From an uncultured Armatimonadetes bacterium (GTDB taxonomy: Bacteria; Armatimonadota; Hebobacteria; Hebobacterales; Hebobacteraceae), in NCBI GenBank assembly GCA_963716175.1, contig OY970296.1, positions 3,200,001-3,264,000 on the forward strand: 64,000 nt of DNA. Reading direction: 5' to 3'. Of the stretch, positions 15,663 to 27,812 are shown in pieces; the first letter of the stretch is position 1, and each line of letters begins with the position of its first letter. The notes under the pieces were generated by a model, which did not search any database, had not been told where the DNA came from, and worked only from the letters and a program-made list of their open reading frames with translations. Made by a program: the position numbers and the translations under genes.

Positions 15663-15863
15663 CTCGCTTACCCTTTCTTGCCCGCCTCCGGCGGGCCCGG
15701 CGGTTCGTCTGCTCTTGCTGCAGGCCGCGCCAGAACGCAACAGGCCCCGGTTGTGTCCCCTCCTGCCGGCGCCAACCTGGGCCTATCGCGAGGTTCGCTC
15801 CTTCCGCTAGGATTCCTCGGCCGGCGAGAGGACCGGCAGCCAGCAAGGGCTAAAACTCCGCAC

Positions 15864-16925
15864 ATGGGACGATCACCAGCACCAAGCATCATCATCACCG
15901 GGGGCGCGGGCTTCCTGGGCTGCCATCTTGCCGCCGGTCTGGCCGGGCGCGCCGGGAGGCTGACCCTGATAGACGTGGCCCCCTTTGTCGCCGACGAATA
16001 CCCGCCCGGGGCCGAGCTGGTGCAGGCCGACGTGCGCGACGCGGCCGCCCTGGGCCAGGTCGTGGCCGCACATCCCTGCGATGTCGTCATACACGCCGCC
16101 GCCGCGCTGCCTCTGTGGACGCGCGAGGACATCTTCGGGGTGAATGTGGAGGGCACGCGGAATGTGCTCGCGGCGGCCCTCGCCTATGGGGTGAAGCGCG
16201 TGGTTTTCATCTCCTCTACTGCGGTCTACGGTGTCCCCAAGAAGCACCCGATTGAGGAGGACGATCCCCTGATCGGCGTCGGGCCCTATGGGGAGAGCAA
16301 GATCCAGGCGGAGCGGCTTTGCGAGGAGTATCGCATCAAGGGCTTGTGCGTGCCGATCATCCGCCCAAAGACCTTCATCGGCACCGGGCGGCTGGGGGTG
16401 TTCGCCATCCTCTACGACTGGGTGAAGAGCGGCGTCCGCATCCCGGTCATTGGTTCGGGGAAGAACCGTTATCAACTGCTGGAGGTGGAGGACCTGGTAG
16501 AGGCGATCTGGCTCGCCTGCGCCGCGCCCGCGGAGAAAGCGAACGTCGCCTTCAACGTCGGGGCGAAGCGGTTCGGCACCGTCCAGGAGGACGTGGGCGC
16601 GCTCTGCCAGTACGCGGGCAGCGGCGCGCGGGTGATGGCGACCCCGGCCTGGCTGGTGAAAGCGCTGCTGCGGTTCTTCGAGTTGGTCAAGCTGTCGCCG
16701 CTCTACAAGTGGGTCTATGGCACCGCCGACAAGGACTCGTTTGTCTCCAGCGAGCGCATCGAGCGGGCGCTGGGCTGGTCGCCGCGTTACAGCAATGCAG
16801 AAGCCCTGATCCGGTCCTATCAGTGGTACCTAGACCACTACACCGAGGTGGAGCAGGCCGTCGGCATCACCCACCGGGTGGCCTGGAAGCAGGGCGTGCT
16901 CAAGCTGTTGAAACGCCTGCTCTGA
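15864..16925 (+). CDS. NAD-dependent epimerase/dehydratase; last codons supplied by the integrated element
   Basis: ITGGAGFLG, YGESK (YxxxK); attL at 16908-16909. Confidence 0.92.
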   Translation: MGRSPAPSIIITGGAGFLGCHLAAGLAGRAGRLTLIDVAPFVADEYPPGAELVQADVRDAAALGQVVAAHPCDVVIHAAAALPLWTREDIFGVNVEGTRNVLAAALAYGVKRVVFISSTAVYGVPKKHPIEEDDPLIGVGPYGESKIQAERLCEEYRIKGLCVPIIRPKTFIGTGRLGVFAILYDWVKSGVRIPVIGSGKNRYQLLEVEDLVEAIWLACAAPAEKANVAFNVGAKRFGTVQEDVGALCQYAGSGARVMATPAWLVKALLRFFELVKLSPLYKWVYGTADKDSFVSSERIERALGWSPRYSNAEALIRSYQWYLDHYTEVEQAVGITHRVAWKQGVLKLLKRLL

Positions 16926-16932
16926 TTGGCAG
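16889..16932. other. attL (host arm + TT core 16908-16909 + element arm)
   Basis: gcagggcgtgctcaagctg-TT-gaaacgcctgctctgattggcag. Confidence 0.8.
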
Positions 16933-18462
16933 GGCGTTTTTGCCCCTCAGGTCCTTTCCAGCCCATGCTATCTCGATCTCATACTTCCGGTCCTTCGACG
17001 GGGCGCGCCAGTTGTCGCAGGCCACCGTCACCTTGAAATCAAGCTCTTGGAGAAGCCACCTCTTCTCTGGTAGTGTCATCGTGTCGAGTCGCCCGGCCAG
17101 GCCAGTGACTCTCTCGGCGACGGCGGCGGCGACCCGCTCCCGCAGCTCCGCGTCCTCGATCAAGGGCTCGATCTCTGCCAGGCGTGCCGCCCACTCCTCC
17201 TTGTCCTCCTCGATGTCCTTGCGGTGCGCAGCCAGCTCCGCAGCCGTGATCTCCTCGCCAGCACGCATCCGAATGTAGCGGTCAAGCTTCGCGTCCAGTT
17301 CCTTGAGCCTCCGCCTCAGCCGCTCGCGCTCCTCGCGGTACTCCGGCACCTTCCGGTCCTGCGTCCGCGCCATGTAGACCGCGGCCATCCTCGGGTCCGC
17401 CACCAGCTCCTCGATCAGGCCCCACACCTTCGCGTCGATGGGCGCCGCCGGCACGTAGCGCTCACGACAGGGCCTGCCCACGTTCGCCTTCCTCTGACAG
17501 CAGGAGTAGTAGCCCAACAGGGGCGCCTCCTGCACCATGCGGCCGAACATCTTCGACCCGCACTCCGCGCAGTGAATCACGCCGCCCAGCAGGAAGTTGT
17601 GCAGGAGCTTGCGCCGCGATCTGTGCTTGTGATAGCGGAGAGCCTTCTGCGCTTTCGCCCAGGTGGCCTCGCTCACCGCCGCCCCTGGTGTCAGGTCGGC
17701 CCGGGCGAAGCAGGCCTCCTCAACCTCCGGCGCCGATATGCGCCACTCGCCCTTGTACCGCGGATCCCTCAGCAGTTCTCGCACCACTGAGGGCCTCCAC
17801 GGCCGATGCGTCCTGGCGAACAGCCGGCGCCCGTTCAGCTCGTCACTGATCTCGCGCGTACCCTTGCCCCGGCAGGACAGGTCGAAGATCAGCCGCACCG
17901 TCGCCAGCTCCTCTTCGCAGGCCGCCGGGCGGCCGCACACCCCCCGCCGCTCGCCCCGCTGCCAGCGATACCCGAACGGTTCCTGCCACACCGAGAACTC
18001 GCCCCGTGCCGCCCTGCCCTGCTTGCCGGTCTTGGTGCGCCGGTAGATGTCGTCGGCCTCCCGCTGCGCCTTCCATGAGCCGATCATGGACACCAGCACG
18101 TCAATGTCGTCGCCGAAGTCCACGTCGCCCCGCGGGGTATGCACCCGAACCCCGGCCGCCTTCAGCCGCGCCGCGATCATCGGCCATACAAGCTGATTCC
18201 TGGCGAGCCGGTCCTGGTCATAGACGACGAGGTGCTTGAACCGTCCGGCCTCCGCGTCGTCCAGCAGTCGGCGCAGCGCCGGCCTGTTGCTGAGGTCATC
18301 CTTGCGCGCGGACTTACCGGCGTCCTCGTAGACCTCACTTAGCGGCCAGCCTGCCCGCTTGCAGACCTCGCGCCCCTGCCGGTCTTGCTCCGGCAAGCTC
18401 ACCGCGTCGAGCGTCGCCTGGCCTTGTGAGCTTACTCTGGTGTAAATCGCTGCCTTCGTCAT
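16900..18462 (-). CDS. Large serine recombinase (integrase)
   Basis: AIYTRVSS catalytic Ser, RPALRRLL, DRLAR, PFGY, Zn ribbon CAECG..C, coiled coil. Confidence 0.95.
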   Translation of the reverse strand: MTKAAIYTRVSSQGQATLDAVSLPEQDRQGREVCKRAGWPLSEVYEDAGKSARKDDLSNRPALRRLLDDAEAGRFKHLVVYDQDRLARNQLVWPMIAARLKAAGVRVHTPRGDVDFGDDIDVLVSMIGSWKAQREADDIYRRTKTGKQGRAARGEFSVWQEPFGYRWQRGERRGVCGRPAACEEELATVRLIFDLSCRGKGTREISDELNGRRLFARTHRPWRPSVVRELLRDPRYKGEWRISAPEVEEACFARADLTPGAAVSEATWAKAQKALRYHKHRSRRKLLHNFLLGGVIHCAECGSKMFGRMVQEAPLLGYYSCCQRKANVGRPCRERYVPAAPIDAKVWGLIEELVADPRMAAVYMARTQDRKVPEYREERERLRRRLKELDAKLDRYIRMRAGEEITAAELAAHRKDIEEDKEEWAARLAEIEPLIEDAELRERVAAAVAERVTGLAGRLDTMTLPEKRWLLQELDFKVTVACDNWRAPSKDRKYEIEIAWAGKDLRGKNALPIRAGVSTA

Positions 18463-18713
18463 CTATGCCCCTCCTGTCTGGGCCGGCGGCCAGCCGGTGA
18501 GGGGGTGTGCCGGCCAGCCGCGCGGCCCGATGTGATCGCGGTTCACCGGGCAGGGCGGCCTCCCGAGAGTGAGGGTCAAAGGGCCCCTCGGAAAGCGCAA
18601 GCCCCGCCCGGCAGACACCGCGTCAGGTGGTAAGGCCAGACGTAGTGCAACACGGACGGGGCGAATAGGTTCTCTACCAGAGTATGGTGTCTGCACCGTC
18701 TGACCTTACCGCC
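18463..18713 (-). ncRNA. Structured 5' leader RNA of the integrase gene (c4/CI-like antisense architecture, putative)
   Basis: ~27-bp imperfect stem 18626-18653/18687-18713; two 9-10 nt segments complementary to contiguous target 18601-18619; further stems with G-U pairs on the minus strand. Confidence 0.55.
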
Positions 18714-18716
18714 CCG

Positions 18717-18745
18717 ATTCTAAGCCACCAGGCCCGATCTGTCAA
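18717..18745 (-). promoter_or_regulatory. Sigma70-type promoter upstream of integrase leader
   Basis: TTGACA-N17-TAGAAT. Confidence 0.8.
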
Positions 18746-19192
18746 GCACGAAAACCGCCCAATCCACCTGCACCTCCACCCCATGCCCAGCACGAACCGC
18801 CCCGCACATCGCCACCTGCGAGGCCATTTCCGGCCGAACGTCCAGAATCGCCCAGGAATCGGCTTTGCCGGGGCCGCACCCACCACCCATGCCAGGCGCT
18901 AATCGCCTGCCCTGCCGCCACCAGTGCAGCCAGGGCAGGCCTTGTGGCGGCCTCGCGCCTCCAAGCAGGGAGGGCCGCCGCCTCCAGACAGACGGCGGCC
19001 CTCAACCCGGCGGCGCCGCCCCCGACGTCGGGGAAAAGTCGAGCCCGCTCCCGCGATCCCACGGGAGAAGGGCGGCGCCACTGATGCCGCCTCGGCGGAT
19101 CAGACCGCGGCTGCCAAAGTCAAGTCAGGTGGGGCCGGCCTGCCACCGGCGCGACCGGCCCCCGGCCTCTGGCTCGCAGGCGCGGCCGAGGC

Positions 19193-20449
19193 CTACACCA
19201 GACACACGAACGGCGAAACCTGGGTCAGACCGTCGGCAAGCGTGATAGGCGCGCGAAGCCACGGCTGCCCATCGGTGCAGGCGAACGCCTTCAACACGCT
19301 GCGGTTCTGAATGAAGTTCGTGCCGTGCGCGTTGGTCATGTCCACGGTCAGGTTCGTGCCGTCTTTGCAGATGTAGTACGACCAGTCCACCAGCAGCACG
19401 TCGCCCGCGGTCCCGAGCACCGGCGCGGCGTCCCATATGTCCACGGGAAAACCGAGCACCGAGCCCCAGGCGTTGGCCGAGGGCTGCCATAGAGGAGTCA
19501 GCCCGCCCGGCAGAGTCGCCATCGCGATCTGCGCGATCACGGTCTGACTGATGATCCACCGCTTCTGCCTACCGCGCGAAGCAGCGACCATGTTCACGAA
19601 GTCGGCGTAGGCCACCGCGCCCGGGCCGGCCCGCGTGACGTTGATCGTCGCCGGATGGCCGATCACGCCCAGCGGTTTCGCCACGCCATCGCCGGCCAAG
19701 TAGGCGTCATCCATCGTCGCCGCGATGGCCTGCGCGAACAACCCGCCCAGGAGCGCGGACACGCCGGGCACGTTCCGGATCAGCTTGTCCGTCAGTTCGG
19801 TGTACCCGGCCAGTTCGTTGGGCTTCAGGGTCAGCTCGCCGAAGGTGGGCTGAGACTCGGGCTTCGCCGCGCCCTCCCCGATCCACGAAACGGTCACGCC
19901 GCCGAACCGCCCGGCCGTGTAGTCGAGCAGCGGCATTTCGATTGCCGCGTCCGGCTGCTGGTCCGACCGGGGCGCATACCGCGCATAGGGCCGGACAAGT
20001 GACTGGTAGGTGATCGCCTCCACCAGCGCGTCGCTCCACTGAGTCGGAACCAAGAAGCCGCCGCTCGCGCCTGTTTGCACTTCCAGCGCGCGGGTGTTCA
20101 GCGCCTGAAGTCGGGAGTCACCGGGGTTCGCGTTCAGCGTCCGGATGAAATCGCCGAAGCTGTCGAAGCCACCGGCCGCCGAGTCCAGCGCCCGCAGCTC
20201 GGAGTCCGGCCGCCGCTCGGCGACGCCGCCGAGGTTGATCGCGGCCCGCTGCGCCGACAGGGAAGCCTGGTCGCGCTGCCCTTCGAGCGCCGTGATGCGA
20301 TCCACCACGGAGGTGCGAATCCGGGCGATCTCGTCCCGGAACTGCCGCACCACATCCTCGTCGCCGCCGGGCAGTGCCAGTCGCGCCCCGCAATCGCAAA
20401 AGAGTCGCGTACCGTCATACTGCTTGCCGCACTTCGGACAGACCTGCAT
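19193..20449 (-). CDS. HK97-fold phage major capsid protein with N-terminal zinc ribbon
   Basis: GGFLVP, WIGEG..KP, G.G..KPLGV, LGFPV, DVLLVDWS; N-terminal CPKCG..FCDCG then coiled coil. Confidence 0.9.
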   Translation of the reverse strand: MQVCPKCGKQYDGTRLFCDCGARLALPGGDEDVVRQFRDEIARIRTSVVDRITALEGQRDQASLSAQRAAINLGGVAERRPDSELRALDSAAGGFDSFGDFIRTLNANPGDSRLQALNTRALEVQTGASGGFLVPTQWSDALVEAITYQSLVRPYARYAPRSDQQPDAAIEMPLLDYTAGRFGGVTVSWIGEGAAKPESQPTFGELTLKPNELAGYTELTDKLIRNVPGVSALLGGLFAQAIAATMDDAYLAGDGVAKPLGVIGHPATINVTRAGPGAVAYADFVNMVAASRGRQKRWIISQTVIAQIAMATLPGGLTPLWQPSANAWGSVLGFPVDIWDAAPVLGTAGDVLLVDWSYYICKDGTNLTVDMTNAHGTNFIQNRSVLKAFACTDGQPWLRAPITLADGLTQVSPFVCLV

Positions 20450-20709
20450 GGTCTGCTCACTTTCCGACCTGCCCGGCCACCGCGGCCGGGTCAGGTCTCA
20501 CGCTTAGTGTGCATCCGCCGAGAGGTGGCTATGCCGGCCTCCCTGCGCTCGACTGCCGGCCCGGAAACAAGCGTGGTGGCCGCCGTCGCGAACGGCGAAT
20601 CCGTCGCCTGCCCCCGGGTGGCTCTGCCGGCCCGGTTGGGAGGTGGTGTCCTGCCGCGGCCGCGACAGTCCCGGCCTCCGTCCCCGGGTGGCGTATGCAC
20701 CAACGCCCC

Positions 20710-21345
20710 TCATCGCTGATACCGTTCATAGGGGTCCCACTCTTCGACGCTGCCATAGGTCTTCGAGCCCGGCGGCATGACGGGAGGATCCCCGGGCCGC
20801 CGCAGCACGATCACCTCAACCTCTTCCGCCGCCGGCGCCTCCTCAGAGACCGCCACCACCGCGTCAACCGCCGCCGTCATGCCCGCAGGCTGCGCACCCC
20901 GCCCCGGTGCCCGCGCCCTGGCGATGGCCTCGGCTTCCCCCTCATCGGGCTCGGCCCGGGCCACCACGATGGGCGGTGCCGGTTTCGGACGCAACTGCTT
21001 GGCCGCCGACGCCAGCGCCGACCAAGCATCGCTCCGCGGAAAGTGCCGCAGAAGCCCCTGCACGGCGACTTTCCAGCCAGAGGCGTCCTGGCAGAGGATG
21101 GCCCTCAAGGTCCTCACCACGTCGTCACGCAGAGGCTCCAGCGCACCTTCTGCCGGCAAGGCCGCGACCGCCGCCAGTAACGGCTCCGGCCAGTTCTCTG
21201 TAGTGGTGTCCGCCAGTGCCGACTTGGCTCTTTCGTAGCCGAGAAAGTCGAACACCAGGTCCGCTCCGTCTAAGAGTGACGGCAGCGCCCACCGCCGCAC
21301 CAGCCGCCCCGCCCTTTCCAGTAGGCTCAGCATAGCCTTACTCAT
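20710..21345 (-). CDS. Hypothetical element protein (helical N-terminus, Pro/Ala/Glu-rich tail)
   Basis: Start overlaps upstream stop; co-oriented in operon. Confidence 0.65.
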   Translation of the reverse strand: MSKAMLSLLERAGRLVRRWALPSLLDGADLVFDFLGYERAKSALADTTTENWPEPLLAAVAALPAEGALEPLRDDVVRTLRAILCQDASGWKVAVQGLLRHFPRSDAWSALASAAKQLRPKPAPPIVVARAEPDEGEAEAIARARAPGRGAQPAGMTAAVDAVVAVSEEAPAAEEVEVIVLRRPGDPPVMPPGSKTYGSVEEWDPYERYQR

Positions 21346-21775
21346 GCGCCGCCTCCAGCGCCGCCACCAGCCTTTCCAGTTCGACCAGCCGCTCCTCGAC
21401 CTCAACACCCCGCCTCACGGCCAAGGCCATCTGCGCGATGCTGGCGCAATCCCGCGCCCTGCCGGATGCCAGCTCGCCCCGAAGGACGGCCCGGGCCAGC
21501 GACTCAAAGAACCCGCGCACGGCCTCACCCGAAGAGAAGTCTATCTGCCCCACCAGCAGCTTCCGCCGTTCCGCCACCACGCGGCCCCCCTGGGCCTGAG
21601 CCTGCCGGCGCTTGTCCGCCAGCCGCTCTGAGTGCGCGAAGCACATGCCGCTGCCATCTGCCAGGGGTATGCCCCGACACCGCTTCCCTGCCCGTGTAGT
21701 GGCTGAGCAGAACTGCCCAGCCGTCTCTGACCCGATCACGCCGCGCTCATTGTCCCTGTGAGTCTCAGAGGCCAC
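21338..21775 (-). CDS. CCCH (HGGxSTG-like) Zn-binding protein, candidate terminase small subunit
   Basis: CSATTRAGKRC..MCFAH; C-terminal EERLVELE coiled coil; RBS CAGGAGG. Confidence 0.6.
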   Translation of the reverse strand: MASETHRDNERGVIGSETAGQFCSATTRAGKRCRGIPLADGSGMCFAHSERLADKRRQAQAQGGRVVAERRKLLVGQIDFSSGEAVRGFFESLARAVLRGELASGRARDCASIAQMALAVRRGVEVEERLVELERLVAALEAAHE

Positions 21776-21930
21776 TGTGGCCCTCCTGGTGCGTCCTGCG
21801 TGTTTTCACCTGACACCCATGTAAAGCGTGCTTGAACAGCCGCCCCCTACATGGGCCGCCGCCCAGCCAGGCCGCGGCCTGGCGCCACCCAAAGCAAGCA
21901 AGTACACGGTTCACTGAATCTCACTCTGCC

Positions 21931-22713
21931 TCACCACTTCACCCTGCCGCCCTTGTCCCCGAACTCTTCGGCCGCGGCTGGCGCTCCACGAGGTGGCCAG
22001 TATGGTTGCTTCTTATCGTCATCGCTCATCCGTGCGTCGCGGAAGTCCCTGCGCGGTGGCGGCCAGTTGCCCTTGATGGATGCCACCAGCACTCGGATCG
22101 GGTCATCGGCCGTCCGCTGTGGGAGCAGTTCGATCTGCGCCTCGATGACCTCGATGCCGAAGTCCTGCACCAGCTTTGCGGCCTGGCTTTTCCCCACGCC
22201 TTGACTTACCAACCGGGAAACAGCAGCAGCGCGCTCTGCTGCTCCCCCCTCTGAAATGTCTTTCTCTGAAGAGGGGGGGGTGTCGTTTTTGTTGTCACTT
22301 TGCCCGTGAGTGACAACACCCACGTTGTCACTAGTGACAACACCAGTGTTGTCAGTTGGCTGGTCCGAAGTGACAACACCCACGTTGTCAGTTGGCCGCC
22401 ATGCCGGGTTCAGATCGTGGCTCGAAGTAGCGCCTCGCCGGCGCATGATTTTGAGGTGTCCCCGCTGCTCGAGGTGGCGGATGGCCCGGGACACGATCCG
22501 CTTGCCGACCTGCACCTCCAGGCCGAGTTTCTGGGCGATCGTCCGGGTTCGAATCTTGGCGGGGATGAGGGCGCCACTCGCCTTGTCCTTCCGGCTGTGT
22601 CGGGCCAGCACGCAGAACACCCGGAGATCCCAGGCCGTCAGTAGCAGGTCGGAGATCACGCGCTCGGGCACTTGCGCAAACCTCGCTCGTGGGGTATCAT
22701 CTGGTCGCCGCAC
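21931..22713 (-). CDS. HTH replication initiator-like protein
   Basis: FAQVP..DLRVFCVL..TIAQKLG..VSRAIRHLEQRGHL winged-HTH pattern; internal iterons; GTG start with RBS. Confidence 0.7.
   Translation of the reverse strand: MRRPDDTPRARFAQVPERVISDLLLTAWDLRVFCVLARHSRKDKASGALIPAKIRTRTIAQKLGLEVQVGKRIVSRAIRHLEQRGHLKIMRRRGATSSHDLNPAWRPTDNVGVVTSDQPTDNTGVVTSDNVGVVTHGQSDNKNDTPPSSEKDISEGGAAERAAAVSRLVSQGVGKSQAAKLVQDFGIEVIEAQIELLPQRTADDPIRVLVASIKGNWPPPRRDFRDARMSDDDKKQPYWPPRGAPAAAEEFGDKGGRVKW
22311..22390. repeat. Three 20-bp palindromic iterons (putative origin)
   Basis: TGACAAC-N6-GTTGTCA at 22311, 22335, 22371; half-site at 22291. Confidence 0.8.
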
Positions 22714-22921
22714 TCTCCAGCTCCTGGGTGCGGCATGAACCGGCCTGGCAGGGCCGGTTTTCTTCTGGCCATCGCAGCGCGCCGCCCGGGCCTCGGGCTC
22801 GGCGGAGACGCCACGCGCGCACCTCGCTGAGATGCTTCCCGTGGGCAAACGGATCTACGTGGCGCATCCGGGGCGAGTGGGGCAAGACGCAGCCGGCGTG
22901 TGTATGGTAGCGGCCGGTCAT
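22697..22921 (-). CDS. Small hypothetical element protein (74 aa)
   Basis: ATGA overlap with MTase stop; MTGRYHTHAGCVLPH...; ends inside rep start region. Confidence 0.45.
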   Translation of the reverse strand: MTGRYHTHAGCVLPHSPRMRHVDPFAHGKHLSEVRAWRLRRARGPGGALRWPEENRPCQAGSCRTQELESAATR

Positions 22922-24183
22922 GGCGCCCCCTCCTGCACCGCCACCTGCCTGGCCTGCTCCGCCTCGCGGATGCGCGCCTCGGCCGTCGCCATCGCCACCG
23001 GGTCGATCTCTATCCCCACGAAGTCCCGGCCCAGCTCGACCGCGGCCACGCCGGTTGTGCCGCCGCCGAGGAAGGGATCGCACACCAGGTCCCCAGGCGA
23101 AGTCAGCCGGCCGATGTAGTACCGGGCACAGCCGATGCTCTGCTGCCAGGGGTGCGCGTCCTTCTGGACGTGCTCGCTCACATAGACGTTCTCGAACCAC
23201 GCCCGTGGCCCGGTGAAGTCGTGCCGCACGAAGAAGAGAAGCGGCTTGCTTCTCGTCCAGATACACATGGTGAAGAGGCGGCCCTCGGCGCCCGGCAGGA
23301 AGATGCTGCCCGAGCACCAGAAACGGAGCTGCTGCCGTAGGCCGTCGAACGCCGCTGGCAGGCAGATGTTCCCCGAGTATGCGATCAGCATACCGTCGGA
23401 CTTGAGGACGCGCGCCGCGAACTCGCTCAGTGCCGGCCAGAGGTGTTCGGCCTGCTTGAGATAGGGCGGATCGGTAAAGAGCAAGTCAACCGAGGCGTCG
23501 GCGATCTCCGCGCCTCGCTCGCGCATATCGCCCAGCAGTAGCGTCGCCGTGCCGATGGTGGCGTCGGCCTCGGCCGCGCCGTTCGCAGAGTAGCCGTCTC
23601 TGCGGGCCAGTTTCTCCAGGCCGCGGGCGTCGAGGACCCGATGGGGCAGATCCCCACCGAAGCTGGCCAGGGCCTTCAGCGCGCGGTCGCGCTCCAGGCG
23701 GTTCTTGGCGATCACTGCTGGCCGCGACGGACGGTACAGCTTACCGTCCCGGCCAAGCACCTCCCCAGGTGTATGATTCTGAACACCTGAAAGGTCGGCG
23801 GCCACGGTGCCCAGGCTCATGCCCACCAGCTCGGCGATGCGGCGAAGGCTCAGGCCGCGGCCGCGCAGTTCGCCGCAGAGTGCGCCCCTCTGCTCCTTGC
23901 TCAACTGGCGGCGAGCGAGGTTCAGCGTCAGCACGTGCTCAAGCTTCTGGCCTTCGGTCAGGCCAGGGCGAACGATCGTGGGGTAGTCCGTGATGCCGAG
24001 TTCGGCGCAGATGGCAAGCCGGGTGTGGCCGTCGAGTACCTGCCCTTTCTCGTCGAGTTCTATCGGGACAAGCACGCCCTCCCAGGCGATGGAAGCCTTG
24101 AGCGCGGCGCGCCGGTCGGTGGCCAAGGGTAGAAACAAATCGGCGAACCTACCGGGCCGCACTTCGGGCTTGGGCGCGCTCAT
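22918..24183 (-). CDS. ParB-like N-terminal domain + HTH + N6A/N4C DNA methyltransferase (beta class)
   Basis: VLDGHTR (ParB-like); SLRRIAELVG HTH; TDPPY precedes DPFLGGGTT. Confidence 0.88.
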   Translation of the reverse strand: MSAPKPEVRPGRFADLFLPLATDRRAALKASIAWEGVLVPIELDEKGQVLDGHTRLAICAELGITDYPTIVRPGLTEGQKLEHVLTLNLARRQLSKEQRGALCGELRGRGLSLRRIAELVGMSLGTVAADLSGVQNHTPGEVLGRDGKLYRPSRPAVIAKNRLERDRALKALASFGGDLPHRVLDARGLEKLARRDGYSANGAAEADATIGTATLLLGDMRERGAEIADASVDLLFTDPPYLKQAEHLWPALSEFAARVLKSDGMLIAYSGNICLPAAFDGLRQQLRFWCSGSIFLPGAEGRLFTMCIWTRSKPLLFFVRHDFTGPRAWFENVYVSEHVQKDAHPWQQSIGCARYYIGRLTSPGDLVCDPFLGGGTTGVAAVELGRDFVGIEIDPVAMATAEARIREAEQARQVAVQEGAP

Positions 24184-24347
24184 CGCGCCCGCCCCTCCGC
24201 CAGCGCGGCGATCGCCTGCTCACAGCGCCGCACCGCTTCTTCCGGCGTCATCCCCACGGGCAAGCGCTGGCGGAACGTGAAGGTCGGGCCCTTGCGCTCG
24301 GCCTTCTGCTTTCGTTGGTCTTCGGTTTTCGCGCCGATCATCCGCAC
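24180..24347 (-). CDS. Small basic protein (~55 aa), candidate directionality factor
   Basis: RBS GGGGAG, GTG start, stop overlaps MTase start (ATGA). Confidence 0.5.
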   Translation of the reverse strand: MRMIGAKTEDQRKQKAERKGPTFTFRQRLPVGMTPEEAVRRCEQAIAALAEGRAR

Positions 24348-24573
24348 GTGTCTCCCCAAACAGAACGCGAGCCCGCTCGGTTCTCCGAGCTGTGGGCTCG
24401 CGTCGGCCACCGCGAGGCGGTCTGGGTTATGTCAACGGGCTTGCGCCCGGTCTTCGCTGGGCAGGCCAGCCGCTAGGACAGCCGACCTGCCCATGAGACT
24501 GCACTCGTTCCAACTGCGAACTCGCCGCGCCCTGTGGGCGCACGTCAAGCCGCGCACCGCGCGGCAGGGGGTG

Positions 24574-25113
24574 TCACCCTTCAGCTAGCAACCAGCGCCA
24601 TCGCGCGCACACGGTCTCCGCGATTTTCTGATCGCCCTCGCCGAGTCTCACGCCCGCGCGCTCGGCCAGGAACTCGGGCGTCAACGCCGCCGCCACTCGC
24701 GCCTGATGTTCAAGCAGCAGACGATGACGCTCAGCCCTGCCGGCAAGCTCGGCGGCGACTTCGTCGGCATCTTCCTGCCAGGCCCACGTTACGCCGGGGT
24801 AACCCTCCGCGAGGAACTCTGCCGCGGCCCGATCCAGCCGCGCCGTCATCTGTGCCGCCATGAGCTTCATGGCCTCGGCCTCGGCGCGGTCGCGCTCCTC
24901 CTCGGCCACGAGTGCGGTGACTTCCTCGCCCAGGACGAGGCGCAGGGTGCGCGCGTACGTCATGAGGCGGCGGGTCCCGGTGTCGCGAACAAGGTCCGAC
25001 AGTATGGCAGGGTGAACCCTCGCCCGCCGCGCTGCCTCGTTCAAGCTGAATCCGGCCCGTTCTATGAGCTGGCCCAGCCGCTTACCCCGGGAAGGGGTTT
25101 CAGGTGTTCCCAT
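24574..25113 (-). CDS. XRE-like HTH regulator
   Basis: LGQLIERAGFSLNEAARRARVHPAILSDL. Confidence 0.7.
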   Translation of the reverse strand: MGTPETPSRGKRLGQLIERAGFSLNEAARRARVHPAILSDLVRDTGTRRLMTYARTLRLVLGEEVTALVAEEERDRAEAEAMKLMAAQMTARLDRAAAEFLAEGYPGVTWAWQEDADEVAAELAGRAERHRLLLEHQARVAAALTPEFLAERAGVRLGEGDQKIAETVCARWRWLLAEG

Positions 25114-25162
25114 GTTTCTCTCCGTTTCATCACAGCCGACTGTATGCCCCATAACACGGCTC

Positions 25163-25191
25163 AGTATACCACATCGGGGCTGGCCTGTCTA
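25163..25191 (-). promoter_or_regulatory. Sigma70-type promoter of the element main operon
   Basis: TAGACA-N17-TATACT ~50 nt upstream of XRE start. Confidence 0.7.
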
Positions 25192-25241
25192 TAGCGATTT
25201 TGCCCCTCCGGCCAGGTTTTTTTCGCGCCCCCGCCCGGGCC

Positions 25242-25277
25242 AAAGAGAAGGACCCCGCACCCGAGGGCGCGAGGTCC
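25242..25277 (-). terminator. Rho-independent terminator, placed to end the integrase transcript in the circular form
   Basis: GGACCTCGCGCCC-tc-GGGTGCGGGGTCC then TTCTCTTT on minus strand. Confidence 0.65.
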
Positions 25278-25385
25278 GGTCCGCCCGATCAGGTTGTCAG
25301 CCGCTCACGCCGCCCAGCGCCCGACCGCCCTCAGGCCCACAAGGTCGCACCGCTTCTCACAGAGCCGCAGGACGCTCCTGGTGGA

Positions 25386-25429
25386 CTCGCAATCTGAGCG
25401 GGGGCTTCTTCAAGCGGGTCTTGTAGGGC
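25386..25429. other. attR (element arm + TT core 25409-25410 + host arm with displaced epimerase 3' end)
   Basis: ctcgcaatctgagcgggggcttc-TT-caagcgggtcttgtag; encodes FKRVL*. Confidence 0.8.
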
Positions 25430-25452
25430 GGGCATGTCTGTGCATGCCCGCC
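25423..25452 (+). repeat. GTAG-type REP overlapping the displaced epimerase stop codon
   Basis: GTAGGGCGGGCATGTCTGTGCATGCCCGCC. Confidence 0.7.
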
Positions 25453-25544
25453 GGCCTCTCTCTCCTCCGCCTCGCCGGGGAGGTGGGCGAGCGACGACAG
25501 CGAACACAGTTGGCCGTAGTCCACTACATCGCAAGGAGACTCCA

Positions 25545-27812
25545 ATGGCCGATACTTCGCCCTCAGTCTGGCCCATCCCCCAAGAGATGAAGCTGCGCGA
25601 GGACGCGCTCGCGCTCAGCCGCGCCGTGCTCGTCGTTCCTCCGCAGGCCAGGGAGGCTGACCTGGGGCCGACGCATCTCTTCGCCGATATGGTGGCCGAT
25701 GACTTCGGCCTGGTGGTGCCAGTGGTGCGCGGCGAGGCGCCGGCCGGCAAGCTGCCCATTCGCATTCGCGTCGCCGGCCAGCGCGGCGGAGGGCGGACGC
25801 CGCGGCATCTCCCCGGCGCCGAGGGTTATCTGCTGCGCATCACCGCGGATGGCGCGGAGGCCGTAGGCCGGGACCGGCGCGGCGCGCAGTACGCAGCGGC
25901 CACCATGCTCCAGCTCGCCCAGCGGCAGGGTGGGGAAGCGGTGCTGCGCGGGGCCGAGATTCGGGATTGGCCCTACAAGCCGGTGCGCATGGTGCACCTC
26001 TATCTGCCCGGCACCGAGCATCTGGGTTACGCCCGGCGCTATCTGCGCGACTTCCTCCTGCGCTACAAGTATAACGGTCTCTTCCTGGAGCTGGGCGGGG
26101 GGGTGAGGCTGCGCAACCGGCCCGAGATCGCCCAGGGATGGCGGCGCTTCGTCGAGGAGCTGCGCGCTATCGGCGACACCGGGCCCATCTATGGCGAGCA
26201 CTGCCCGCTGGGGCCTGGTGGGCGATTTGCCGCCTCCGTGCACACCCATCTCGCGGACGGGCGCTACCTGGAGCCCGGCGACCTGCGCCTGATCAGCGAC
26301 TGGGCGCGAGCATACGACCTCGACCTGGTCCCGGAGATCCAGTCCCTTGCCCACGCCTACTACCTGGCTTGCACCTATCCCGAGATCGCGGAACTGAAAG
26401 AGGCCGATTTCCCAGATACCTACTGCCCCTGCAACCCGAAATCGTATGAGATCCTGTTCGATGTCATGGCCGCCTACATCGAGCTGACGCAGTGCCGCAG
26501 CCTGCACATCGGGCACGATGAGTGGCGCGCCGCCGGCCTCTGCCCGGAATGCCGTCAGAAGGACACCGGCGTGCTGTTCGGCGAGGACGTGGTCAAGATC
26601 GCCTCCTGGCTGGCTGAGCGAGAGATCGGCGTCTGGATGTGGGGCGACCACTTGGTGCCCAAGCACAATGCCCGCGCGCGCAGCCATCGCAGTGCCAAGG
26701 TGTGGTACGACCATCCCGACACCCAGGCTGCGGCCGAGATCGTGCGCCGCGGGGCCCCGCAGATCACCATGCTGAACTGGTCCTGGTACCTGGGCGCAGA
26801 GGACGGCGACCGCGTGCTCGCCGACCTGGGGTTCAAGCAGATCTACGGGAATTTCCATGCCCGCGGTTTCCCCGACTGGCCCGGCCGCAGCGCGCATCCC
26901 AGCGTGCTCGGGGCGGAAGTCTCCTCCTGGTGTGCCTGGGACGATTTCGAGCTGGGCATGATCCACTACCCGGACGCCGTTCACTCTGCCAACGCCATGT
27001 GGTCTCAGCATTGGCCCGCGGCCGGCGAAGTGGAGAGGATCGTGGCCCAGCAACTGCCCAAGCTGCGGGACCGGATGCGGCGCGGCTGGGAGAAGCCGCG
27101 ACTGCTGTCAGAGGCCACCCCGCGAAAGCGCAAGCAGATCATCTCCATTCGCCAGGCCTGCAACGCTCTGTCGAGAACGGAAGACTGGGACCTGAGCGGC
27201 CTTCGCTTCGGCCCCCAGGAGTCGGACGGCCTCGCCTATGAGCTGCTCGATCCGGCCGCGAATCAGGGGTGCGTGGGCGTAGTGGTGGAGCGGCTGCAGA
27301 AGCCCGAGACTCAGTATCCGCAGGCCTCAAAGGCGATTCGCATTGGCGGCAAGTACGCGAGCCTGATCTTCTGGCAGGTGGCAACCGCTGCCGGCGGGAG
27401 ACCCGCCCACGCTGGAGATGGCACCAATCACCCTCGCGAGGCAGCCGAGCTGCTGGGCTGGTATGAGATCAGATTCGCCGATGGCCTGACCCGGCAGGCC
27501 GAGGTCCGCTATCACGAGAACGTGGGCGCCTGGGATGAGGGCCACGTGTTGCTGTACTACGCCAGGGAAGTGGAGTCCGGCCGCCTGCCCGAGGGCAAGC
27601 CGCTGGTGATCTGGGGCCTGGAGTGGACGAACCCGCGGCCGGAGGTCGAGATCGAGTCAGTAACCCTGCACGGCGCCAGGACCATGCCTGAGCGTGGGGA
27701 GGGGCACTTCTCCGGGGCGCGGCCCATGCTGCTGGGGATCACCGCAATCGAGGCCCTCAAGTGGGAGGACTACCGCCCGGGGAAGGAGGGGAAGCTGCCG
27801 GGGGTGCCCTAG
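25545..27812 (+). CDS. GH20-like glycoside hydrolase
   Basis: EGYLLRI..IRDWP domain-2 motif, VPEIQSLAH, HIGHDE catalytic motif. Confidence 0.85.
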   Translation: MADTSPSVWPIPQEMKLREDALALSRAVLVVPPQAREADLGPTHLFADMVADDFGLVVPVVRGEAPAGKLPIRIRVAGQRGGGRTPRHLPGAEGYLLRITADGAEAVGRDRRGAQYAAATMLQLAQRQGGEAVLRGAEIRDWPYKPVRMVHLYLPGTEHLGYARRYLRDFLLRYKYNGLFLELGGGVRLRNRPEIAQGWRRFVEELRAIGDTGPIYGEHCPLGPGGRFAASVHTHLADGRYLEPGDLRLISDWARAYDLDLVPEIQSLAHAYYLACTYPEIAELKEADFPDTYCPCNPKSYEILFDVMAAYIELTQCRSLHIGHDEWRAAGLCPECRQKDTGVLFGEDVVKIASWLAEREIGVWMWGDHLVPKHNARARSHRSAKVWYDHPDTQAAAEIVRRGAPQITMLNWSWYLGAEDGDRVLADLGFKQIYGNFHARGFPDWPGRSAHPSVLGAEVSSWCAWDDFELGMIHYPDAVHSANAMWSQHWPAAGEVERIVAQQLPKLRDRMRRGWEKPRLLSEATPRKRKQIISIRQACNALSRTEDWDLSGLRFGPQESDGLAYELLDPAANQGCVGVVVERLQKPETQYPQASKAIRIGGKYASLIFWQVATAAGGRPAHAGDGTNHPREAAELLGWYEIRFADGLTRQAEVRYHENVGAWDEGHVLLYYAREVESGRLPEGKPLVIWGLEWTNPRPEVEIESVTLHGARTMPERGEGHFSGARPMLLGITAIEALKWEDYRPGKEGKLPGVP

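Follow-up and report, generated by a model that had tools for sequence, protein, structure and literature searches.

Capsid-bearing elements smaller than a phage

In 2026, Aguilar et al. (Nat Commun; PMC13669383) reported 536 'twilight-zone' genomes of 5-11.6 kb that encode an HK97-type major capsid protein (MCP), and the main text of that report describes a dominant group, 8.75 +/- 0.7 kb in length, that possesses an MCP, a scaffold, an integrase, RepA and regulators and is devoid of terminase, portal, connector and tail genes; its authors weigh both satellite and non-canonical packaging explanations. Here we describe a mobile element of much the same size and content, residing in the 4.56-Mb single-contig genome of an Armatimonadetes bacterium and located within a window of 64,000 nucleotides (the whole stretch of DNA that was analysed, to which coordinates refer unless another contig is named). 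The element spans 8,501 bp between its crossover points (16910-25410), is bounded by exactly placed attachment (att) sites, and encodes an HK97-type MCP and a large serine recombinase. The reading that we favour, to which we assign a probability of roughly 0.58, is that it is an integrated, helper-dependent phage satellite that would form its own small heads, and that it represents a previously undescribed lineage.

The resemblance to the mini twilight-zone genomes covers size, an HK97 MCP and a scaffold-like partner as the only structural genes, and the presence of integrase, Rep-like and regulatory genes together with the lack of terminase, portal, connector and tail genes. The dominant group of those genomes comes from the human gut and has MCPs enriched for encapsulin Pfam families, whereas the MCP of the element matches PF05065 and TIGR01554 only. 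The element, in addition, was found in its integrated state between exact att sites and has a large serine recombinase, whereas PMC13669383 nowhere uses the word 'serine' in its main text, which also does not describe the module of two genes, p145 and p232, that precedes the MCP gene of the element.

A second precedent is provided by those tycheposons of Prochlorococcus that resemble phage-inducible chromosomal islands (PICIs), which, in the accessible text of the study describing them, carry an MCP or a terminase small subunit (TerS), include a minority with a large serine recombinase, and are read as phage satellites (Hackl et al., preprint 10.1101/2020.12.28.424599). Like the element, they are small, integrative and self-replicating, and they join a site-specific integrase and replication genes to an MCP or a TerS; this either/or pattern matches the element as compared with the TerS-bearing siblings described below. 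According to the earlier note, some tycheposons target tRNA genes, and such genes are labelled in the figures of that study; the element lies in the 3' end of a protein-coding gene and not beside a tRNA gene; the host phylum also differs, and the likeness is one of description, not of sequence comparison. The novelty that an earlier note on this DNA had assumed for the element was overstated, since lone-MCP PICI-like tycheposons and portal-less integrase/Rep/MCP genomes of ~8.75 kb have already been published.

In the Staphylococcus aureus pathogenicity islands (SaPIs), integration is by tyrosine integrases, regulation by Stl/Str and packaging by cos- or TerS-based functions, and the Ccm protein of one of them, the cos-type PICI SaPIbov5, is an MCP homolog. 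SaPIbov5 likewise has a single capsid-related gene, and it redirects helper heads to small capsids using the portal, terminase and tail of the helper; its host is a Firmicute, it has no p145-p232 module, and it is compared with the element by description. In the consulted text of PMC12409344, Ccm is cited as a capsid-redirection factor. Capsid-forming PICIs (cf-PICIs) are described as integrative elements that make small heads of their own with their own MCP, and the element shares with them the MCP (PF05065, 2.9e-33). The SatelliteFinder model for cf-PICIs, as set out in the text of de Sousa et al. (NAR 2023, PMC10085698), includes portal, head-tail adaptor, connector and terL among 11 core components, whereas none of these was found among the open reading frames (ORFs) of the element, and no portal or TerL (terminase large subunit) match was found across its host genome; the same text gives serine and tyrosine recombinases as an example of 'exchangeable' integrases. 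With respect to the integrase and replication functions of classical PICIs, the element has a serine integrase and a Rep-like protein identified by weak hidden Markov model (HMM) matches and iterons, and its relative L017 has a clear D5_N/Pox_D5 primase-helicase; the TerS or other packaging-redirection gene of classical PICIs was not found in the element. Marine virion-encapsidated integrative mobile elements (VEIMEs) of module 3, and PICI-like elements (PLEs), are satellites of a few kb to ~20 kb that integrate by serine recombinases (Eppley et al., PNAS 2022, PMC9618062). They share that mode of integration with the element and carry terminase small subunits, primases and AlpA, whereas the words 'capsid protein' are absent from the main text of that report; they, too, are set beside the element by description, not by sequence comparison.

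Searches of titles and abstracts turned up no paper describing the p145-p232-MCP-recombinase architecture, and the searches made turned up no described satellite in this host lineage. The element belongs to a recently recognised class of capsid-only mini elements, to which it adds exact att sites, a partner module and TerS-bearing siblings.

A discrete element with exact ends

The ends of the element, its recombinase and its capsid module are as follows.

16908-16909: attL crossover dinucleotide TT, within the last six epimerase codons, the present stop being at 16923-16925 (aligned with the empty sites of genomes G005 and G011)
25409-25410: attR crossover dinucleotide TT, with the displaced original epimerase tail FKRVL downstream and its stop at 25424-25426 (junction alignment)
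16918-16941, plus strand: terminator-like hairpin and T-run directly 3' of the substituted epimerase stop; 7-pair stem at 16918-16936, then TTTTT
16900-18462, minus strand: large serine recombinase (int), 520 aa; Resolvase PF00239 4.3e-25, Recombinase PF07508 2.2e-13, Zn_ribbon_recom PF13408 1.1e-7, phrog_95 1.3e-86
19193-20449, minus strand: HK97-type MCP, 418 aa; PF05065 2.9e-33, TIGR01554 8e-47
20710-21345, minus strand: p232, 211 aa with the ATG at 21345 as start; 8-nt overlap between this start and the p145 stop
21338-21775, minus strand: p145; N-terminal Zn-finger (C..T..G..C....C..H; weak DUF5763 match), then four helices

The insertion point lies in the last six codons of an NAD-dependent epimerase gene (15678-16925, plus strand), and the right-hand neighbour of the element is a glycoside hydrolase family 20 (GH20) gene (25434-27812, plus strand), in surrounding DNA of 67-69% GC. 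In G005 and G011, two genomes of the same family, the epimerase gene is the neighbour of the GH20 gene, with no element between them. The epimerase of those genomes ends in GVLKLFK(K/R)VL* and that of the window in GVLKLLKRLL*; when the DNA to the left of attL is joined to that on the right of attR, the tail GVLKLFKRVL* is restored, identical to that of G011. The boundaries proposed in the earlier note (16908-25410) proved exact to the base by these criteria, and its placement of the insertion in a protein-coding gene was also correct: the tail that the element puts in place of LFKRVL* is nearly the same (LLKRLL*), with the terminator-like hairpin directly after it.

The attL and attR sites have only the TT in common, as is expected for a serine recombinase, and the reconstructed attP is an imperfect inverted repeat, GAGCGGGGGCTTC-TT-GAAACGCCTGCTC, with arms that match at 10 of 13 positions (junction sequence ...GGGGGCTTC-TT-GAAACGCC...). 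Large serine recombinases are characterised by short att sites with no more than a central dinucleotide in common and by an imperfect inverted repeat in attP, as well as by the order of domains that is seen along the 520 residues of the enzyme (resolvase catalytic domain, Recombinase domain, zinc beta-ribbon). The int reading frame crosses attL, so that its C-terminus depends on the state of integration (16900-16912 with 25300-25410): the integrated form ends in ...RAGVSTA* at 520 aa, and the computed excised form has 552 aa, with a tail that is 35 residues longer.

A direct repeat, TTTTGCCCCTC, found near both ends, was considered as an att core and was ruled out, since the empty sites place the crossover elsewhere. 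The two copies of this 11-mer (16938-16948 and 25198-25208) lie just inside the ends, within a 17/21 match, and in an excised circle they would flank attP at ~+30 and ~-210 nt; an accessory factor could bind there, or the match could be due to chance. In G011 (locus L003, 2130-2970), the same epimerase/GH20 junction, which may be a recurrent insertion site, holds ~850 nt of additional DNA in which small ORFs run on the opposite strand. Seven sequencing runs match the element, all as contigs and none as RNA, with shares of at most 0.14 each; two of them (X1 and X2) hold identical 150-330-nt pieces across it. The contigs of these runs are small pieces, none of which spans attL or attR or displays an attB or attP joint, and they are uninformative on excision.

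The capsid gene and its portal-less relatives

The MCP matches PF05065 as its sole Pfam family at E <= 0.01, and no encapsulin family in Pfam or NCBIfam. It retains all 38 of the columns that are invariant in an alignment of 40 sequences (A1). Among 8,000 candidates scored, 183 MCP homologs were found at E <= 1e-3, and in a search of 401 genomes of the phylum only two were positive, namely the present genome (G000) and G006. Scans for MCP loci, from which the best 80 of 156 matches in metagenome contigs and the best 80 of 441 in IMG/VR were kept, provided the genomic contexts; single-protein scans for MCP loci found no close relative in genome contigs or IMG/VR.

Three of the related loci share more with the element than the capsid gene. 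L017, a 14-kb contig of which ~8.8 kb corresponds to a near-complete element, displays the same order of p145, p232, MCP, spacer and serine recombinase, with an MCP that is 46% identical; its replication gene encodes a D5_N/DUF5906/Pox_D5 primase-helicase rather than a Rep-like protein, and its host neighbours are also different. The recurrence of synteny that the earlier note had suggested looking for was seen for the p145-p232-MCP-serine recombinase block and not for the replication module. L016, a shorter contig (MCP 67% identical), carries p232, the MCP and a conserved non-coding block described below, and L177, a shorter contig of G006 (MCP 42%), has the MCP together with a p145 that is frameshifted and a p232 that has diverged. 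These three loci and the window, and no other, were matched by the p145 and p232 profiles among the six-frame ORFs of loci L014-L177. The invariant MCP columns are retained at 38/38 in L016, 38/38 in L017 and 35/38 in L177. The three residues lost in L177 (G006:C376) correspond to K196, E212 and N382 of the window MCP, a Lys/Glu/Asn trio reminiscent of the capsid cross-link triad, the likeness being by residue type only.

The ORFs of the related loci were clustered, and Pfam searches of cluster representatives identified cluster 1 as portal, 2 as S78 protease, 4 as TerL and 5 as TerS. Merging of identical MCPs reduced 148 loci to 111 unique ones, of which the 62 with at least 2.5 kb upstream were scored. 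A portal or protease gene was present in 60 of these 62, the exceptions being the window and L017; loci with short flanks were left unscored, and of 161 loci with an MCP match by tblastn, 13 (L016 among them) lost their MCP ORF in the ORF filter. In a FastTree phylogeny of 119 MCPs, the window groups with five relatives known as proteins only (support 100), then with P0011 and L177 (96), and then with L017 (90); P0008, which has the same N-terminal 30 residues, is taken to stand in this tree for the MCP of L016. None of the nine rows of the resulting clade (Shimodaira-Hasegawa-like support 90) has a portal or protease context, and the sister clade (L173, L148) comprises loci with a T4-type TerL, portal, S78 protease and MCP.

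The N-terminus of the MCP holds a Zn-ribbon (CPKC...CDC) followed by a coiled, delta-like region. A Zn-ribbon of the form CxxC...CxC or CxxC...CxxC precedes the delta-like region in the window (20350-20449), L017, L177, L173, L134 and L072, and a strict pattern finds it at the N-terminus of 9 of the 119 MCPs. It is also present in sister-clade MCPs that belong to true phage head modules (L173), and therefore predates the capsid-only elements. The family profile of the MCP matches the capsid of RcGTA, a gene transfer agent from Rhodobacter capsulatus (6TBA), at 7e-21, which makes this capsid its nearest solved relative; the single MCP sequence has no match in the PDB. The RcGTA head is small.

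The contexts bear directly on whether the element is a decayed HK97-type prophage from which portal, terminase and tail genes were deleted. In favour of such an origin, its more distant MCP relatives lie in full head modules, in 60 of the 62 scored loci. Against it stand the intact att sites and recombinase, the compactness of an element that has its own promoters, origin and regulator, the recurrence of the same portal-less module in independent contigs with different neighbours, and the lack of any head or tail gene fragment in the searches of the element and of the genome, so that this explanation is close to refuted. Nei-Gojobori (NG86) dN/dS ratios for the MCP between members of the clade are 0.35-0.56, values that are upper bounds and weakly informative because synonymous sites are near saturation at a third-position GC content (GC3) of ~0.9, and selection was judged more on the count of invariant residues. 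Together, the recurring portal-less module, its separate clade, the invariant residues and the dN/dS argue strongly, on comparative grounds, that the element is not a deletion remnant. The claim of a discrete element with intact ends is in this way upheld, and the two outcomes that the earlier note had considered damaging to it, relatives with portal or tail genes and a capsid gene under relaxed selection, were not encountered: neither portal nor protease accompanies the MCP in its nearest readable relatives, and the capsid residues are conserved. The similar sizes of the two near-complete elements (8.5 kb in the window and ~8.8 kb in L017) fit a limit set by head capacity.

The partner proteins p145 and p232

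The protein encoded by p232 has a variable helical N-terminal part, a disordered linker rich in Ala, Pro and Glu, and a strongly conserved stretch of ~35 final residues (...EEVEVIVLRRxPGDPPVMPPGSxxYGSxExWxPYERYQ in alignment A4). Homologs are rare, with five matches among 5.8 billion proteins, the window's own included. For one of these (P0126) and for an MCP homolog (P0009) the longest contig is 9,972 nt, which suggests that both lie on one contig. The C-terminal peptide is found at all four MCP loci (diverged in L177) and at none of the three sibling loci examined. An AlphaFold2 (AF2) model of p232 has a mean confidence (pLDDT) of 52, and the ESM Atlas held no usable match to it. By this co-occurrence and build, p232 is a candidate scaffold-like partner of the MCP.

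The same build raises a different explanation, in which what the element encodes is a portal-less HK97 'mini virus' that needs no helper, or an encapsulin-like compartment, with p232 as cargo or scaffold recruited through its C-terminal peptide; in that case, the replicon of the element might likewise enter the shell, in a manner coupled to Rep. The published mini genomes (8.75 +/- 0.7 kb; MCP, scaffold, integrase, RepA) are discussed in such terms in the text of PMC13669383; p232 has the folded N-terminal part, disordered linker and conserved C-terminal peptide of a cargo protein, a layout that would resemble that of encapsulin cargo; and no helper-type head genes were found in the genome. 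The MCP itself points elsewhere: it matches the phage family (PF05065/TIGR01554) and no encapsulin family, it nests among the MCPs of ordinary TerL-portal-protease modules, and it retains a delta-like N-terminal region, which normally needs a prohead protease. The Rep-like protein is, moreover, of the iteron-type winged-helix kind, with no match to HUH rolling-circle proteins, and the siblings carry TerS, a part of terminase-dependent packaging. We regard this explanation as unlikely, and the specific proposal that MCP and p232 make a closed portal-less shell that carries the 8.5-kb replicon or a protein cargo without a helper as similarly unlikely. If it were true, the element would be a free-standing integrating mini virus or mobile nanocompartment, and a living intermediate between tailed-phage capsids and encapsulins, one that could be put directly to the test by way of its exact att sites and promoters.

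The second protein of the module, p145, is part of the backbone of a wider family of elements: its profile collects 2,854 cluster representatives at E <= 1e-3, of which 324 reach E <= 1e-10, with C23, C33, C45 and H48 of the Zn-finger invariant. One homolog of p145, P0134, belongs to a 56-kb contig. In the ESM Atlas it resembles only clusters of 'hypothetical proteins', most of them viral. The earlier note had called it TerS-like, an assignment that was dropped: p145 matches no terminase family in Pfam or PHROGs and has no fold support, and only 1 of 60 members of its family matches a TerS PHROG. Sibling elements carry p145 beside a separate, real TerS homolog, and p145 is therefore not the TerS.

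Sibling elements that carry a terminase small subunit

The p145 family profile matches 13 of the 401 genomes of the phylum, with a second copy in the present genome and five in G011; the p145 copies at the five G011 loci are 90-96% identical to one another, and the sibling-type loci in that genome are L181, L191, L194, L195, L196, L198 and L199. In these siblings a p145-like gene is followed by one or two genes for proteins weakly like the N-terminus of p232 (E 1e-3 to 3e-2) and devoid of its C-terminal peptide, and then by a ParB-methyltransferase gene. A serine recombinase is present in the two sibling loci that could be read most fully, and all three of those read lack an MCP and encode a protein that matches phrog_309, 'terminase small subunit' (1e-14 to 5e-9). 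The second copy in the present genome, outside the window (L197, G000:C1:811000-830500), is accompanied by an AEP-type primase-polymerase of 919 aa, a sigma-70-like protein, a serine recombinase and the phrog_309 match, and this copy of the element is interrupted by the transposase gene of an IS110 insertion.

By these comparisons, a wider serine-recombinase backbone is distributed in this host family, and its members carry either a TerS, or an MCP together with a tail-peptide p232. The TerS of the siblings makes the backbone look phage-parasitic, and so makes it more probable that the MCP type, too, is a satellite. The same backbone can also be read differently, as an integrative or mobilisable plasmid-like element that gained a capsid gene by chance recombination, with no role for that gene in its life cycle. 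Recombinase, replication module, ParB-methyltransferase and p145 do exist without an MCP in the siblings, and members exchange replication modules freely; yet members whose MCPs have diverged to ~44-49% identity still have the MCP, the same gene order and, upstream, the dedicated partner p232, and the invariant MCP residues are intact, which makes chance capture quite improbable.

Gene layout, replication module and regulatory signals

The ten ORFs of the element were searched against Pfam and PHROGs, and also against NCBIfam and PADLOC; its DNA was searched against Rfam. Every convincing gene between 16900 and 25152 lies on the minus strand, in frames that are backed by GC3 phase, and the order of transcription is XRE-like gene, 76-aa ORF, ParB-methyltransferase, Rep-like gene, p145, p232, MCP, a 730-nt spacer and the serine recombinase. 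The gene content and single-strand order described in the earlier note agree with the ORFs and with Pfam, PHROGs and NCBIfam. The features of the element that have not been listed above are the following.

24574-25152, minus strand: XRE-like helix-turn-helix protein, 192 aa, first gene; HTH_3 5.5e-3 (weak)
24180-24410, minus strand: 76-aa ORF; GC3 phase fits the frame
22918-24183, minus strand: fusion of a ParB-like N-terminal domain with an N6/N4 DNA methyltransferase; PF01555 4.8e-16, phrog_67 3e-31, ParB-type PHROGs
21931-22848, minus strand: Rep-like initiator with winged-helix region; HTH_36 1e-3 and phrog_270 (replication initiation protein) 4e-4, both weak
22309-22396, no strand assigned: three iterons on AGTGACAACACC...GTTGTCA, spaced by 24 and 36 nt, inside the Rep-like coding sequence and beside a lower-GC stretch
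25163-25191, minus strand (25191 to 25163): promoter P_xre, TAGACA-17-TATACT with upstream TG, just ahead of the XRE-like gene; sigma-70 consensus match only
18717-18745, minus strand (18745 to 18717): promoter P_int, TTGACA-17-TAGAAT, 11/12, 255 nt upstream of int; sigma-70 consensus match only
18463-18716, minus strand: int 5' leader, 254 nt, three long hairpins; predicted fold z = -5.36, 0/200 shuffles as stable
18767-18927, minus strand: conserved non-coding block of ~160 nt immediately upstream of P_int; nhmmer match to L016 at 2.4e-15
19128-19192, minus strand: GC-rich hairpin GGGGCCGG...CCGGCCCC directly 3' of the MCP stop; sequence kept in L017, paired in the spacer fold
25250-25277, minus strand: 12-pair terminator-like hairpin within the right end, with 9 G-C pairs

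The XRE-like protein is a candidate master repressor, and the 76-aa ORF has no family match in Pfam, PHROGs, NCBIfam or PADLOC. PADLOC matched methyltransferase models only, with no restriction partner and no other known defence family, and the ParB-methyltransferase is for that reason considered an orphan methylase. The claim of a rep gene with an origin was borne out in part: three iterons, a putative origin of replication, do lie inside the gene, and the Rep assignment itself, which consists of weak HMM matches plus the iterons, is unconfirmed; a PDB sequence search with the Rep-like protein gave no match.

Two sigma-70-like promoters stand out, as compared with 0.6 expected by shuffling. 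The structured leader that had been proposed ahead of the integrase holds as a prediction (z = -5.4, with none of 200 shuffles as stable), the whole MCP-int spacer has a fold z of -4.4, and Rfam finds no known RNA family in the element, its three matches (E 0.21-1) lying far below gathering scores. The conserved block at 18767-18927 occurs once in its own genome, and its core (...GCCTGG..TGGTGGGTGC...) is partly kept in L017 as well. Its RNA fold is no better than that of shuffles (z = -0.67), and the block is therefore read as probably a DNA-level site (an operator or a packaging signal) and not a folded RNA. The hairpin at the right end would block transcription from the host side into the element.

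A contig from a wetland metagenome (run X5, record 21) matches both flanks of 18929-19131, with 15 other letters in place of 201 nt, and 18513-18822 is matched by another contig, at 20 differences; the spacer and leader therefore have a close variant elsewhere. Between p232 and the start of the MCP gene lies a gap of 260 nt without coding signal (20450-20709), with counterparts of ~180 nt in L016 and ~220 nt in L017, that may be a conserved leader of the capsid gene.

Weighing the satellite reading

The case for a helper-dependent satellite draws on several lines of evidence: (i) the element is intact; (ii) its layout is PICI-like, in that a regulator, an iteron-bearing replication module, genes for morphogenesis and an integrase are present, whereas among the ten ORFs Pfam and PHROGs find no portal, prohead protease, TerL, connector or tail family, as the earlier note had correctly recorded, and no TerS; (iii) the module of MCP and partners is maintained; (iv) the MCP is of phage-capsid origin; (v) siblings carry TerS; (vi) the C-terminal peptide of p232 and the MCP co-occur; and (vii) the two near-complete elements are of similar size. 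The earlier note had proposed a satellite family that hijacks or blocks the head pathway of a helper phage; the discrete element and recurring lineage of that proposal stand, and the lifestyle is a matter of interpretation, as no helper, pac site or excision junction was found in the data analysed.

Several results weigh against this reading. The element has neither a TerS nor a recognised pac or cos site. Its MCP is the only PF05065 match in the 4.56-Mb genome, throughout which PF04860 (portal), PF20441 (TerL nuclease) and PF04586 (S78 protease) are unmatched, so that no helper is known. Tblastn searches of the genome with up to 60 members per cluster from related phage contigs (portal, S78 and long-S78 protease, TerL, T4-type TerL, TerS, tape-measure and two unnamed clusters) found no match; the MCP cluster matched, at the element only. 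The dN/dS of the MCP is not very low. The AF2 model of p145 (pLDDT 70) matches no PDB fold at E <= 0.001 (best 1.2), and thus no terminase-like fold. Finally, pattern scans of IMG/VR with p145 and p232 found no relative, and as the single-protein scan of that collection also yielded no close MCP relative, the lineage is unseen in contigs classed as viral.

The lack of a packaging gene is compatible with one further explanation, that of an integrative, self-replicating island that is not itself capsid-borne and whose capsid homolog acts mainly as an anti-phage decoy, poisoning the heads of related phages. Interference with capsid assembly is common among satellites and islands, according to the consulted text of PMC12409344, and an MCP that comes alone, beside an altered partner, could have a dominant-negative effect as a subunit. 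However, the orphan methylase aside, no known defence family was matched, the 38/38 invariant residues point to a shell-forming protein rather than a mere poison, and the ~8.5-8.8 kb of both near-complete elements fits a packaged genome. Such a decoy role, which shades into satellite interference and is compatible with it, appears rather improbable as the main function.

A proposed mechanism

The large serine recombinase places the element at the TT within the last six epimerase codons, where, under the satellite reading, the XRE-like repressor probably silences it. Infection by an HK97-type helper would lead to excision and to replication from the Rep and iteron origin, followed by expression of p145, p232 and the element's own MCP. 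The MCP, guided by the C-terminal peptide of p232, would co-assemble with the helper portal and be processed by the helper protease, and p232 might serve, by way of its tail peptide, as an internal scaffold or size determinant. Processing and assembly by an HK97-type helper are expected because the MCP has a delta-like region and nests among MCPs encoded beside a prohead protease. Heads sized for ~8.5-8.8 kb would then be filled by the helper terminase and joined to helper tails, with the conserved block at 18767-18927 as the best, though speculative, candidate for a packaging or regulatory site. The outcome would be spread of the element and waste of the helper's resources.

Significance

A recombinase with a defined attP and attB is a candidate tool for genome engineering. 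Most of the capsid-bearing sub-phage elements known so far are loose contigs in metagenomes or belong to a small number of model satellites, whereas the present one is integrated in a complete genome. It thereby offers a system in which to ask whether a lone capsid gene redirects helper heads, whether it forms shells by itself, and what roles are played by p145 and by the tail peptide of p232. For this family of elements, the comparison with its siblings suggests that one backbone may parasitise phages in two alternative ways, through a terminase small subunit or through a capsid.

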